Positions 30,792 through 46,922 of a DNA stretch of 64,000 bases are shown here, one piece after another. The DNA is taken from the sequence record MZ436830.1; one strand, written 5' to 3'. Each line of letters begins with the position of its first letter. Position 1 is the first letter of the stretch. Both the position numbers and the translations under genes were made by a program. This DNA comes from Escherichia phage JK1. Under the pieces are notes generated by a model. The model saw only the letters and a list, made by a program, of their open reading frames with translations. It ran no database searches and was not told where the DNA came from.

Positions 30792-30826
30792 TTTATTCTC
30801 CAAGATGTTTAATTGCGGTACAGGTA

Positions 30827-30855
30827 TATAATATCATATCCTGTACCAAAGTAAA
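30827..30855 (-). promoter_or_regulatory. Early-type promoter candidate with embedded inverted repeat
   Basis: Minus strand GTTTACT then A/T-rich -10 candidates (TATTAT/ATTATA) at 16-18 bp; 8-bp inverted repeat GGTACAGG/CCTGTACC (30817-30824, 30840-30847) flanks the -10. Confidence 0.4.
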
Positions 30856-30860
30856 CTATT

Positions 30861-31229
30861 TTATGCAACTTTAATCCAATTATCTAAATTTAATTCACCT
30901 TTGGCTTTCATTTTTTCAATCAAGAGGTCAGCGGTAATACGACCATTTTGATACCACGTAACATCTTCAGAGTAACCAGTTTCTTTATCTTCATAAGTCT
31001 CACAACGAATTTTACCAATAATCAAAGTTTTCAATTCGTATGTATCTCCAGTAAAAAAGTTAGTTAACATTATTTTCCAAGAGAAATCATCAGAAGGACC
31101 TTCAGGAGTCATGCAACCTACAAATTCAAATTGTTCTTTGTATAAGTGCCACTGAAGTTCTTTAGTTTCGATAGCTTTATAGCCGTCGTGATCTTTACCT
31201 TTGATGTATGAGTTAAGATTGATTTTCAT
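30861..31229 (-). CDS. Hypothetical protein (30.x cluster)
   Basis: 122 aa ORF; early promoter and GAGGAGAATAAAATG upstream. Confidence 0.55.
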   Translation of the reverse strand: MKINLNSYIKGKDHDGYKAIETKELQWHLYKEQFEFVGCMTPEGPSDDFSWKIMLTNFFTGDTYELKTLIIGKIRCETYEDKETGYSEDVTWYQNGRITADLLIEKMKAKGELNLDNWIKVA

Positions 31230-31256
31230 TTTATTCTCCTTTGTTTGTGTAAGATA

Positions 31257-31285
31257 ATACTATCACAAAGGAACTATACTGTAAA
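31257..31285 (-). promoter_or_regulatory. Early-type promoter candidate
   Basis: Minus strand GTTTACA-17-TAGTAT, 28 nt upstream of ATG 31229, just downstream of a terminator hairpin. Confidence 0.45.
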
Positions 31286-31316
31286 CAACTTTATGCAATC
31301 TTTGGAAAATAAAAAA

Positions 31317-31334
31317 GGACTCCCGAAGGAGTCC
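31317..31334 (-). terminator. Terminator after the small basic protein gene (minus strand)
   Basis: GGACTCC-TTCG-GGAGTCC hairpin followed on the minus strand by TTTTTTATTTT. Confidence 0.65.
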
Positions 31335-31339
31335 TCAAC

Positions 31340-31516
31340 TTATGCTTTCTGCTTACCAAAACGAGAAGCATCATCTCGAAGAACCGCACGTGCTCGACGC
31401 ATGATCTTCTCAACAGTTTGATTAATACGAGAGTTCGACCCACGCTTGTAGCCAGCGCGTTTAGAATCACCAACTTTCTTTTCAACTGCTTTCTTTGCTT
31501 TAGCTTGTTTTGCCAT
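31340..31516 (-). CDS. Small highly basic protein
   Basis: 58 aa from ATG 31514-31516 (MAKQAKAKKAVEKKVGDSKRAGYKRGSNSRINQ...); ORF track extends to 31558; terminator hairpin downstream. Confidence 0.5.
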   Translation of the reverse strand: MAKQAKAKKAVEKKVGDSKRAGYKRGSNSRINQTVEKIMRRARAVLRDDASRFGKQKA

Positions 31517-31635
31517 TATAAATTCTCTTTTAAATGAAAATGCAGGACTTATTGGCATTGCCTGCGCAAGCCCTCAAGGGGTACTTAGGTTTTGAATATT
31601 TACCGACAGGATAACCATAAACCTCGTCAACATAA

Positions 31636-31884
31636 TTACTTCAGTGTTACCACAAAGTGACGAACTGCTTTTCGTGCAGCAGAAGCCAAAGGCTTAGCAT
31701 ATTTAAGCTCATCTTTTTCCTGGAGCTCAGCGGCTAATGCAGTTTGAGCAGGATTCAGATGTTTGAAATAACGCAGGATTTCAAGAGCTTCGGCTTCAAC
31801 ATCAATAGATGCGCCATAGTTTTCGTGACCATTATTCCATGCGTTTCGTTGCAGTTCAAGAGCGTGTTGTAATTGTTTAATCAT
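31636..31884 (-). CDS. rIII: rIII lysis inhibition accessory protein
   Basis: 82 aa ORF, length and sequence as recalled for T4 rIII; located downstream of gene 31. Confidence 0.75.
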   Translation of the reverse strand: MIKQLQHALELQRNAWNNGHENYGASIDVEAEALEILRYFKHLNPAQTALAAELQEKDELKYAKPLASAARKAVRHFVVTLK

Positions 31885-32023
31885 TTAAAAATTCTCGTTA
31901 GAGATTAAAACTCGGTAGTCACGTTCTTCTGAATTTCATCTTCTTTCGACAGATCTCTCAGTTGTAGACTACCACATAGAATTGTTCGGTTAACTTATTA
32001 TTCCGACACCCAATTCATATTAT

Positions 32024-32031
32024 TATTTATA
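32024..32031 (-). promoter_or_regulatory. Late promoter TATAAATA (candidate for rIII, minus strand)
   Basis: Plus-strand TATTTATA immediately after gene 31 stop, about 140 nt upstream of rIII. Confidence 0.4.
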
Positions 32032-32367
32032 TCACTTATAAAGACACGGAATAGCTTTATAGTGACAAGTAACGAATTTTTGTTTAATTTCTTTTGGCTG
32101 CTTAAGACCCAGAGCTACAAAAGGATGCGGAACATTTCGAATTTGACCAACTGGAAGAGAAGTCAAATCACCAACTTCGCAGAAACCTTCAGGAACATCA
32201 GGACCAACAGAGTGAACTACACACAGTTCAGGAACTTCACCTTGAACACGTTTACCGATAATAAGTCCTGATTCTGTAACTTCTTCATCACCAGCCTGTG
32301 CAGGTTCAGAAACTAAAATAACATATTCACCGACAGCACGAATTGGTAGCTGTTGTACTTCAGACAT
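32032..32367 (-). CDS. 31: Co-chaperonin gp31 (GroES analog)
   Basis: 111 aa ORF, length and position as T4 gp31; MotA-box middle promoter upstream. Confidence 0.88.
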
Positions 32368-32397
32368 CGTTTTTCCTTTTTGTTAACAGATGAATTA

Positions 32398-45000: not shown

Positions 45001-45245
45001 TACGCAAATCCTCTTTCGATAAACCATTCAGTGGCTTTATTAGCATCAAAGAATAATTCTTCATACGTCTTTTCTTTGTTTTCAAAAACTGTCACACAGA
45101 CACGTTGACATTCTCCACAGTATTCTTCTGACATACTCAAAGCGTCAGAAAACATTTCTTTAAATTCATTTAAATCAGGATTATGCAATGCGTTAAAAAT
45201 TGCATAATCAAATTCATCATTCATAAATTCAAATACAAAAATCAT
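45000..45245 (-). CDS. Hypothetical protein (frd.x cluster)
   Basis: 81 aa ORF with CxxC pair (CGECQRVC). Confidence 0.55.
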
Positions 45246-45256
45246 ATTATCTCCTA

Positions 45257-45589
45257 TTAAAAAGGATCAGGAACATATCCGCTAGCTTTAATCATTTTAA
45301 TTAACGTTAACATTCCTTTGTTAACTGCTCGTGAGATTTCATCAAAAACTTCATCACTAAAAAGTTCTAACACGCCCTTCTGAACTTTTAATTTACAGCC
45401 AACAATTTCTTCATCGCCTATAGTAAATTCATTACCACCAATTCCACCGAAAAACTTAATTACACCAGTTAACTGTCTTCCACGAGAATATGGGTCGTGT
45501 GATAAAGTAATATGAGTCACCCCGGGTACAGTTTTAAATTGGCAGCGAATATTTACTTGTGAAATTCCAGTTACATGAATGTCAGACAT
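45257..45589 (-). CDS. Hypothetical protein (frd.x cluster)
   Basis: 110 aa ORF. Confidence 0.55.
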   Translation of the reverse strand: MSDIHVTGISQVNIRCQFKTVPGVTHITLSHDPYSRGRQLTGVIKFFGGIGGNEFTIGDEEIVGCKLKVQKGVLELFSDEVFDEISRAVNKGMLTLIKMIKASGYVPDPF

Positions 45590-45599
45590 AATATTTTCC

Positions 45600-45842
45600 T
45601 CAAATAGACTTTTTCACAATTTTCCAATCAGCTTTAAACTGATCGACGTCAGAGTGATAAATCCAAAATCCTGCGCTTTCACCGTCTTCATAAAGCGGAC
45701 ACCCATCACATTCATCTTCCCATCCCATGCCACGTAAAAGGTGTTCAGCTTTTTCAACAAGTTCAGAATCTTTACCGATGATATTAAAATACCATTTACC
45801 TCTAACTTCCGAATCTTTGATGCTCTGACGTTGTAATCTCAT
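45600..45842 (-). CDS. Hypothetical protein (frd.x cluster)
   Basis: 80 aa ORF; ATG 45840-45842 preceded by GAGGAGAATAAA; early promoter upstream. Confidence 0.55.
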   Translation of the reverse strand: MRLQRQSIKDSEVRGKWYFNIIGKDSELVEKAEHLLRGMGWEDECDGCPLYEDGESAGFWIYHSDVDQFKADWKIVKKSI

Positions 45843-45868
45843 TTTATTCTCCTCAAGTTGATAAGGCT

Positions 45869-45897
45869 ATAGTATCATTACCATAGCCCGTTGTAAA
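45869..45897 (-). promoter_or_regulatory. Early-type promoter candidate with embedded inverted repeat
   Basis: Minus strand GTTTACA-17-TACTAT; inverted repeat GGCTAT/ATAGCC (45865-45870, 45883-45888). Confidence 0.45.
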
Positions 45898-45900
45898 CAA

Positions 45901-46161
45901 TTATTTTTGAATTTTATCGAGCCACTTACCAAGCTTAATCATTTCTTTAGTAGCCTTTTCCATACTTCTGAACTTGACCAATAGAGGATAGGTATCGACA
46001 CCCATAACTAAACTGGTTACAAGACTGTGTTCACCCACAAGCCATAACGAATACGTTTGAATATCGAGCCCGTAATTTCTGTCTTTATGGACCCGTACAC
46101 CCATCACTTCAAATTTCTCACTAGCTTTTTCTACCGCATCCAGGAAATCATCTTTAGTCAT
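45901..46161 (-). CDS. Hypothetical protein (frd.x cluster)
   Basis: ORF track start 46203 would overlap the upstream gene by 41 nt; internal ATG 46159-46161 gives 86 aa and a clean stop/start junction. Confidence 0.45.
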   Translation of the reverse strand: MTKDDFLDAVEKASEKFEVMGVRVHKDRNYGLDIQTYSLWLVGEHSLVTSLVMGVDTYPLLVKFRSMEKATKEMIKLGKWLDKIQK

Positions 46162-46162
46162 A

Positions 46163-46543
46163 TTAGGCCTTAAAAGTTTTTCGCAAAAGTTCAATGATTT
46201 CATCTACATTGTTTTCATCTACAATGCAGTGAATTTTTGTTACGCCAGAAACCTTGTCTTTGACTTCATTTTCTTCAGAAGTCGGTTCTTTATACTCACG
46301 AAAACAATGAAATTCATCTTCGCAAATTTCTAAAAGTCTATCTTTGAGGTAAAAATGCTTTCCATTTGCGCATTCAATGTGTTTTACTGCTTTATATCCA
46401 TTAGCGACGGAAACTTCTTTAACTTCAAACCATCCGCCATTATCTCGAATAGCTTTAACGATTGATGAATTAGAACGTGGGCTATAATTAATAAATGTAT
46501 CAATAAGTCTTGGAACAAGTTCATACTTTTTGCCAATATACAT
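46163..46543 (-). CDS. Hypothetical protein (frd.x cluster)
   Basis: 126 aa ORF. Confidence 0.55.
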   Translation of the reverse strand: MYIGKKYELVPRLIDTFINYSPRSNSSIVKAIRDNGGWFEVKEVSVANGYKAVKHIECANGKHFYLKDRLLEICEDEFHCFREYKEPTSEENEVKDKVSGVTKIHCIVDENNVDEIIELLRKTFKA

Positions 46544-46587
46544 TATGTTTTCCTCATTTTAACGGGGCTGTAATAGCCCCTTAATAA

Positions 46588-46818
46588 TTATTGTTCAATC
46601 AGTCCCATGTAAAATTCTGCGTCTTCAGAATCCATGCCGTCACAATACTCATTAGCCATAAAGCGGGTGAGGTCTTCAAGAGGACCTTCAATGACAATAG
46701 AAAAATTGCAATAATTGGGATCATCGTGAATACTTGTGATACTAAGCTCAGGATAACGATTACGAATAATTTCTTCAATATATTCAAAATCAACGATGTC
46801 AATATCAACTTTAGCCAT
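46588..46818 (-). CDS. Hypothetical small acidic protein
   Basis: ATG 46816-46818 (MAKVDIDIV...) has AGAGGA upstream; ORF track start 46839 lacks an SD; first gene after the early promoter downstream of gene 32. Confidence 0.5.
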
Positions 46819-46861
46819 ATTATTTTCCTCTTTAATCATCAGCAGTATTGCCGATAGTTGT

Positions 46862-46890
46862 ATAGTACCACAGTCCTTGTGGTATGTAAA
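46862..46890 (-). promoter_or_regulatory. Early-type promoter candidate downstream of gene 32 terminator
   Basis: Minus strand GTTTACA-17-TACTAT; spacer contains inverted repeat TACCACA-GTCCT-TGTGGTA. Confidence 0.45.
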
Positions 46891-46922
46891 CTGTTTTGTG
46901 AAAAAATTTTTGAAATAAAAAA

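Follow-up and report, generated by a model that had tools for sequence, protein, structure and literature searches.

Elements that combine an early promoter with a stem-loop (PeSLs) were defined in phages RB49 and phi1, in which the stem-loop lies mostly between the −35 and −10 sequences or overlaps the −10 (Arbiol et al. 2010, PMC2839356). Analogous, AT-richer elements were described on T4 early promoters at the internal-protein (IP) loci of T-even phages, and the authors call them analogs, not homologs, of the RB49 PeSLs (PMC2839356). In the portions of a later paper that deal with T4 and PST, PeSLs are extended to these phages with the consensus TTTACW-N17-TAYWAT (Comeau et al. 2014, PMC4122927); for the promoter/stem-loop elements at the T-even IP loci, that paper cites Repoila et al. 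(1994). The PeSL papers propose that the elements act as recombination linkers, and neighbouring PeSLs are reported to recombine and so to release mini-circles. We analyzed a stretch of 64,000 nucleotides of Escherichia phage JK1 (MZ436830.1), referred to below as the window, in which four early promoters on the minus strand (sites 1–4) carry short inverted repeats around the −10 or inside the spacer. At the level of sequence, these sites show all the properties of PeSLs, an element class that is already in the literature.

In T4, the genes e, soc, 49, and I-TevI are translated only from an internal promoter, because a hairpin in longer transcripts covers the ribosome-binding site. The promoters described here resemble these genes in that the 5′ arm of the repeat lies upstream of the transcription start, so that only read-through RNA would fold, and in that the Shine-Dalgarno sequence (SD) lies in the 3′ arm at two further promoters of the window, P30.8 and Palc. 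They differ in being early, whereas e, soc, 49, and I-TevI use late promoters, and at sites 1–3 the SD is located outside the stem and is predicted to be accessible. Horwitz and Loeb reportedly described, in 1988, a promoter that was regulated by supercoil-driven cruciform extrusion of a repeat that had been engineered and measured about 50 bp. That promoter and the sites here have in common that the inverted repeat is centred on the −10 region of a σ70-type promoter; in contrast, the arms here are 6–8 bp long, with long loops and weak DNA hairpin energies.

The window is, by its sequence, that of a T4-like phage (Tequatrovirus). The 6-kb stretch around sites 1–2 is 96–98% identical to many Tequatrovirus genomes, and the gene order is that of T4 (30.x, rIII, 31, cd, pseT, alc, rnlA, nrdB, nrdA, td, frd, 32, and rnh, all on the minus strand). 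The pattern GTTTAC-N16–18-TAnnAT gave 8 matches in the window, all 8 on the minus strand, against 0.75 expected, and at least 8 matches were obtained in 0 of 100 shuffled sequences. Each of the four repeats lies inside one GTTTAC-N17/18-TAnnAT promoter, and the T4 record names the promoter of site 2 as early promoter Pe133295. These results indicate that the sites are genuine T4-type early promoters recognized by the host σ70 RNA polymerase. An earlier reading of this DNA (the sequence-only reading) had called them early promoters, correctly, without placing them in the PeSL class, and the coordinates that it gave for the four repeats are exact when the minus strand is read.

All four sites are on the minus strand. 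Site 1, the early promoter upstream of 30.7 (30817–30856), has the −35 GTTTAC at 30856–30851, the −10 TATTAT at 30833–30828, and arms of 8 bp, GGTACAGG (30847–30840) and CCTGTACC (30824–30817); the −10 is in the 15-nt loop, and the 3′ arm spans about −3 to +5. Site 2, between cd.3 and cd.2 (34140–34178), has the −35 at 34178–34173, the −10 TATTAT at 34154–34149, and 7-bp arms, GGTAGAG (34167–34161) and CTCTACC (34146–34140), with a 14-nt loop. Site 3, upstream of frd.1 (45865–45898), has the −35 at 45898–45893, the −10 TACTAT at 45874–45869, and 6-bp arms, GGCTAT (45888–45883) and ATAGCC (45870–45865), with a 12-nt loop; the end of the −10 is shared with its 3′ arm. Site 4, upstream of frd.3 (46862–46891), has the −35 at 46891–46886, the −10 TACTAT at 46867–46862, and 7-bp arms, TACCACA (46884–46878) and TGTGGTA (46872–46866), within the spacer and with a loop of 5 nt. 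The gene order bears out the earlier placement of all four repeats in intergenic gaps, which are 30.8>30.7, cd.3>cd.2, frd.2>frd.1, and 32>frd.3, respectively. The stop codon of the upstream gene is 2–6 nt ahead of the −35, and the next SD and ATG are 15–35 nt beyond the 3′ arm.

The comparison with described PeSLs rests on four properties. The four promoters match GTTTAC-N17/18-TA(T/C)(T)AT, and they carry perfect arms of 6–8 bp within the promoter, with significant predicted folds at sites 1–3 and a weak one at site 4. They are intergenic, between the stop codon of a small gene and the next SD and start codon, in a variable region, and insertions, deletions, or replacements distinguish close relatives at sites 1–4. 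The RB49/phi1 PeSLs and the sites here share an AT-rich stretch, a σ70-type early promoter, a stem-loop, an SD, and the start codon of a small accessory gene, and both occur many times per genome, with a concentration in variable regions and beside insertions and deletions. The −35 is of the T4 type, GTTTAC, here and TTGACA in the RB49/phi1 PeSLs; furthermore, the stems here are AT-richer, lack polyG/polyC and a T-tail, and have perfect arms 12–15 nt apart. In the passages of the 2014 paper on T4 and PST, the PeSLs belong to the phage group and have the promoter consensus of the sites here, and gene swaps are associated with them (PMC4122927). The legend of its PST figure places the stem-loops just upstream of the promoter (PMC4122927), whereas the arms at sites 1–3 flank the −10, as in RB49. 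The longest repeats of T4 are found at the IP loci, namely ipI (73939, 10 bp), ipIII (66498, 8 bp), and downstream of ipII/upstream of denV (65413, 10 bp).

A random 50-nt segment of the sequence contains a perfect repeat with arms of at least 6, 7, and 8 bp with probabilities of 0.21, 0.065, and 0.021, respectively. Because perfect repeats are this common, a single repeat of 6–7 bp proves little, and the class was tested instead of the four chosen cases. Arms of at least 6 bp were found in 6 of the 8 promoters of the window, including P30.8. The whole T4 genome contains 34 such promoters, with arms of at least 7 bp in 9, at least 8 bp in 5, and 10 bp in 2, and the 3′ arm usually starts directly after the −10 hexamer. 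As a control, each spacer was paired in turn with the −10/downstream segments of all other promoters. In T4, arms of at least 7 bp were present in 10 of 34 own pairs and in 2.6% of the swapped pairs (permutation p<5e-5), and arms of at least 8 bp in 5 of 34 and 0.09%, respectively. For the window alone, the same comparison gave permutation p values of 0.001–0.007. The RNA duplex energy was −8.4 kcal/mol for own pairs and −5.8 kcal/mol for swapped pairs, with an equally low value in 0 of 20,000 permutations, and the mean fold z-score over 60 unique promoter regions was −1.9. As a class, the repeats are strongly enriched and are not the product of chance. The sequence-only reading had allowed that they might be no more frequent than expected in AT-rich sequence; this does not hold for the class, although it probably does for site 4.

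The RNA that would be read through from the upstream gene was folded for each site. The values were −19.2 kcal/mol (z −5.5) for site 1, −16.3 kcal/mol (z −4.1; 12 pairs including G·U) for site 2, and −14.7 kcal/mol (z −4.1; 11 pairs including G·U) for site 3. The fold of site 4 was not significant (−8.4 kcal/mol, z −1.1), as 24 of 200 shuffled sequences were equally stable. The site-1 repeat has arms of 8 bp in Tequatrovirus, 10–11 bp in Mosigvirus, 11–12 bp in Gaprivervirus, and 12 bp in Dhaka-like contigs; it is lengthened, not eroded, in the last three. Among nine distinct site-1 sequences, 2 of 16 columns in the arms were variable, compared with 16 of the 22 other non-hexamer columns (Fisher p=3e-4). 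Conservation of the site-1 arms thus equals that of the promoter hexamers. The site-2 repeat is kept in Tequatrovirus, has 10-bp arms with a 10-nt loop in Mosigvirus, and is absent in VR7. Three different repeat versions occur among phages at the frd.1 locus (site 3): the repeat of the window is identical in VR7, Mosigvirus has a related repeat of 9–10 bp, annotated there as a terminator, and T4 and RB32 have a different repeat, AGGGTA/TACCCT. The site-4 repeat is not conserved in T4, RB32, Mosigvirus, and Gaprivervirus; at the frd.3 locus a different 5-bp repeat, CATAAagctTTATG, is present in T4, and no repeat in RB32 and Mosigvirus. The 3′ arm at site 4 (TGTGGTA) largely coincides with an extended −10/−10 sequence, TGTGGTA, that is found repeatedly in these promoters. 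The site-4 repeat probably arose by chance or as a side effect of the promoter consensus, and it is probably not functional. We conclude that sites 1–3 are real features under constraint, each supported individually by its RNA-fold z-score and its conservation. Of the checks that the sequence-only reading had proposed, both the folding of read-through transcripts and the conservation of the repeats in relatives spoke for sites 1–3 and failed for site 4. No match to Rfam 15 was found at any of the four sites, even with E values up to 1 (window positions 29000–52000).

More distant phages carry other repeats at the same place. In a phage whose gp30.7 is 55% identical (L029/L044), the orthologous 30.7 promoter has an unrelated 13-bp repeat, GCTGATTGAGTGT...ACACTCAATCAGC, around the −10; in another (L042), the spacer of the 30.7 promoter pairs instead with the SD region over 11 bp. 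Independent repeats at this position measure 13 and 15 bp in L044 and 11 and 13 bp in L042. In a motB-type promoter family, the stem that brackets the −10 shows a compensatory change from C:G to G:C (GGGACCA/TGGTCCC and GGGAGCA/TGCTCC), and the adjoining pair forms a G-C, G·U, A-U series. This family occupies different loci in different genera (T4 7215 compared with L011, L012, L013, L036, and L040). The number of relatives is small: a scan with the single protein Cd.2 gave 5 near-identical loci, and one metagenome scan gave 9 loci.

The sequence-only reading had proposed three roles for the repeats, namely operators for a repressor, DNA structures that aid recombination, and RNA hairpins in read-through transcripts. 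The last of these fits best, given the folds of sites 1–3 and the G·U substitutions described below, although the unbiased strand tests were not significant. On balance, we consider it probable, by no means assured, that the repeat works, for the most part, as an intercistronic RNA stem-loop within PeSL-type early promoters. At sites 1–3, the spacer (about −26 to −19) has its complement just past the −10 (about −3 to +5), which places the −10 in the loop of a potential hairpin. By standard σ70 geometry, transcription from the promoter itself would start inside the 3′ arm, so that its own mRNA would lack the 5′ arm and would be unable to form the hairpin. Read-through RNA from the upstream gene would be the only RNA with both arms and thus with the hairpin, because the 5′ arm would be missing from the promoter's own transcript and a terminator scan (30000–49900) gave no minus-strand terminator between the upstream gene and sites 1–3. 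The stem-loop would mark the end of the upstream message, as a predicted attenuator, 3′-end protector, or insulator, and read-through RNA would differ in structure from promoter-proximal RNA.

P30.8 and Palc, which were not in the earlier reading, place the SD in the 3′ arm, as in the T4 genes e, soc, and 49; sites 1–3 do not. P30.8, the early promoter of 30.8 (31237–31286, minus strand; −35 at 31286–31281), has an 8-bp repeat, TCCTTTGT (31272–31265) and ACAAAGGA (31244–31237), with a 20-nt loop, and its 3′ arm is the SD of 30.8. For the T4 ortholog of 30.8, the predicted accessibility of the SD-AUG region was 0.43 in read-through RNA and 0.83 in the promoter's own RNA. Palc, an early-type promoter upstream of alc (37447–37503, minus strand; −35 at 37503–37498), has an imperfect repeat at about 37497–37447, in which the spacer pairs with the SD region (catGAGGActt) right ahead of the ATG; the RNA fold was −24.4 kcal/mol over 62 nt. 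This predicted fold suggests that the translation of alc is masked on read-through RNA. At both promoters, the 3′ arm on the SD would mask translation on read-through RNA. The 3′ arm also lies on the SD at the T4 regB, dexA, and denV promoters. In the distant phages, the SD-pairing arms are 9–15 bp long, and the parts of these arms outside the SD covary with the spacer. SD masking was also considered, and rejected, for the four sites. At sites 1–3 (T4 orthologs), where the SD is outside the stem, the predicted accessibility of the SD-AUG region was alike in read-through and proximal RNA (0.53/0.55, 0.66/0.70, and 0.71/0.75, respectively), which counts against masking at these sites. Genome-wide, the promoter's own upstream region masked the SD no more than foreign upstream regions did (0.43 and 0.45, p=0.18–0.54), and we therefore make no claim of general SD masking.

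A wider version of the stem-loop reading holds that the hairpin switches the fate of the RNA: RNA from the promoter itself would be hairpin-free and read-through RNA would fold, so that fate would depend on the promoter of origin. We regard this as possible and somewhat doubtful. Under such a switch, the fold would hide the SD at alc, 30.8, denV, regB, and dexA, and at 30.7, cd.2, frd.1, ipI, and motB it would cap the upstream message and leave the ribosome-binding site open. No description of a promoter-of-origin hairpin layer was found in the literature searched, and the search returned no T4 start-site or 3′-end mapping paper.

Rearrangements were observed at all four sites. At site 2, an extra gene of the RB32ORF214c type (about 520 bp, about 175 codons) directly follows the promoter in RB32, T6, and many relatives. 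The insertion (L014 = RB32 16381–16908) lies between the site-2 promoter/SD and cd.2, with its left boundary within the SD-ATG stretch; the window (34118–34140) and T4 do not contain this gene. At site 3, the promoter is replaced, and T4 and RB32 have a different repeat and an extra 22-codon open reading frame (ORF). This ORF, which is unannotated and hydrophobic (MFAPYIMAAVMLVCLYLLIKAC), lies between the frd.1-locus promoter and frd.1 on the minus strand of T4 (NC_000866, about 146010–146080) and is also present in RB32; the window (45843–45865) and VR7 lack it and have a different version of the promoter. The site-4 promoter has been swapped: it matches a T4 promoter from another locus, and the T4 frd.3 promoter itself matches yet another. 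Promoters of the site-4 type are found at the T4 loci 2458, 50973, and 167086. In the metagenome contig L046 (OBCQ01000004.1), site 1 is a hybrid with a Tequatrovirus-like 5′ arm and loop and a Mosigvirus-like 3′ flank, which indicates a crossover inside the promoter/repeat element.

A T4 pseT-region clone from 1985 (X03007.1; L054, 2246–2393) reads GGTAGAG-CTATAATATCACAA-CTCTACC, so that the 14-bp loop of site 2 (window 34147–34160; T4 NC_000866 133300–133313) is flipped and fits exactly between the two arms. The resulting spacer is 13 bp long, and the promoter is thus dead. Among about 800 phage records, the flipped loop was found only in X03007.1, and it could be a repeat-mediated inversion selected during the cloning of a toxic promoter or a sequencing artefact. 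Judging from the insertions, deletions, and swaps and from the PeSL papers, the conserved promoter/repeat/SD block would also serve as a DNA linker for the exchange of gene cassettes. These observations of exchange fit the published recombination-linker idea and are compatible with the repeat itself as the driver of exchange.

Several results weigh against the RNA stem-loop. The hairpin in the RNA is itself a prediction from folding. The difference in duplex energy between the sense and antisense strands was not significant (p=0.70), nor was the excess of G·T over A·C among the stem-flanking pairs (15 and 12, respectively; p=0.22). Perfect Watson-Crick arms also fit a role at the level of DNA or a recent origin by template switching. 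Formal covariation analysis of the nine distinct site-1 sequences gave no pair that had changed on both sides and was no better than for shuffled sequences. Such repeats occur in only about one third of the early promoters, and most have none. The equal SD accessibility at sites 1–3 and the lack of a T-tail after every stem, which makes classical termination unlikely, belong here as well, as does the absence of a significant association between the repeats and missing upstream terminators (p=0.39). On the other side, all four substitutions seen in the core arms (L016, RB32, L035, and the motB-type family) give G·U pairs on the sense strand, and the sense strand was the more stable one in 10 of the 12 strongest T4 duplexes (p=0.04, for a subset chosen post hoc). 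The lean to the sense strand appears in post-hoc subsets only, and the evidence for RNA over DNA is thin.

We consider a structure at the level of DNA unlikely. It could be a cruciform, or a hairpin formed while the DNA is transiently single-stranded, and it could stimulate recombination or inversion at the promoter, with shuffling of cassettes, or modulate promoter opening through a loop that presents or hides the −10. The perfect Watson-Crick arms of 7–15 bp, the own-versus-swapped complementarity that is equally significant on both strands without significant strand asymmetry, the insertions, deletions, and swaps at sites 2–4, the crossover within site 1, and the exact flip of the site-2 loop in X03007.1 all agree with such a structure. 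However, the hairpins predicted for single-stranded DNA are weak (−5 to −10 kcal/mol, with loops of 12–15 nt, and z only −1.3 for site 2), so that extrusion of a cruciform from duplex DNA would be very unfavourable. Moreover, the long-range pairing of spacer and SD over loops of 20–31 nt resembles RNA and not a cruciform, the arm substitutions seen are all sense-strand wobbles, and the flipped loop is found in no natural genome. The recombination-aiding structure of the sequence-only reading is a reasonable proposal that is compatible with the rearrangements. It is quite improbable, furthermore, that the pairing has no function and that the repeats, being nearly neutral, persist after their origin by mutation, in which the TATA-rich, self-complementary −10 would seed snap-back or template-switch copying, perhaps together with gene conversion between promoter copies. 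Perfect arms are expected from template switching, the site-1 family lacks a double compensatory change, the repeat is present in only about one third of the promoters, site 4 behaves as chance, and promoter copies clearly move between loci. Against a neutral by-product stand arms as conserved as the hexamers across four genera while loop and flanks vary, repeats that become longer in Mosig-, Gapriver-, and Dhaka-like phages, unrelated repeats of 11–15 bp at the orthologous promoters of distant phages, and the compensatory change and wobble series of the motB-type family.

Strict transcription terminators or attenuators, which would stop RNA polymerase coming from the upstream gene as claimed for the RB49 PeSL stem-loops, are very unlikely. 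In their favour, the stem-loop of one RB49 PeSL lowered downstream lacZ to about the same extent as rrnB T1 (PMC2839356), and the Mosigvirus record MK373778 labels the site-3 ortholog a predicted terminator. A separate upstream terminator is present in 1 of 10 repeat-bearing promoters and 7 of 24 others; this is the nonsignificant association given above, and the idea that repeat-bearing promoters substitute for a missing upstream terminator was rejected. No T-run follows any of the four stems, whose tails (GCAATTAA, AAAACAAA, TTATCAAC, and CTATACAA) are A-rich, and the terminators of gene 32 and 30.9 were the only ones that the terminator scan called near the sites. The sites are thus not canonical terminators, and intrinsic termination was rejected for them. 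The least probable account is that each repeat is an operator that binds a dimeric phage or host repressor and shuts off the early promoter. The dyad symmetry centred on the −10 and the site-1 arm sequence, which is conserved and not covarying, agree with it, and how early promoters are shut off is, according to the literature, not fully understood. The sequence-only reading had offered this role, yet there is no shared dyad: the arms of one promoter are unrelated to those of another, and T4 has more than 10 different arm sequences; loops measure 4 to 23; L044 has a wholly different repeat at its orthologous 30.7 promoter; and most early promoters carry no repeat. With arms that change from promoter to promoter and loops of widely varying length, a common repressor operator is not tenable, as no single DNA-binding protein could recognize all the repeats.

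Other features were noted in the window. An early-type promoter inside gene 34 and antisense to it (50671–50720, minus strand), which was not in the earlier reading, has a 6-bp repeat around the −10, CTGGAG (50703–50698) and CTCCAG (50676–50671); this repeat is weak on its own. A canonical intrinsic terminator follows gene 32 (46923–46941, minus strand; GGGGACC tctag GGTCCCC, then TTTTTT), just upstream of the site-4 promoter. Together they form the layout of a stem-loop upstream of the promoter that the PST figure legend gives for PeSLs (PMC4122927). Rfam also gave a hit below threshold to Atu_C8, an sRNA of Rhizobiales, at 31301–31384 (minus strand), which scored 31.4 bits (gathering score 50; E=0.008). 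The hit overlaps the hairpin of the 30.9 terminator and has most likely arisen by chance from that terminator. Judged by ORF sizes in comparison with T4, td and nrdB are uninterrupted in 37500–48000, without introns, I-TevI, and I-TevIII, and the window lacks mobE/nrdB.1 between nrdA and nrdB and segG between 32 and 59.

These results mainly confirm a known design, in which small accessory genes are swappable cassettes that carry a strong early promoter, a stem-loop, and a ribosome-binding site. The terminator activity claimed in the literature is based on a single RB49 stem-loop, and T-tails are missing from the T4 stems. In practice, the flipped loop in the old clone cautions that such repeats may rearrange during the cloning of strong phage promoters. 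If the hairpin forms only in read-through RNA, it would offer a testable handle on the immediate-early versus delayed-early expression of the same gene in T4, and it would bear on the insulation between tandem strong promoters. The fate switch, if true, would constitute a genome-wide post-transcriptional layer that separates immediate-early from delayed-early expression.

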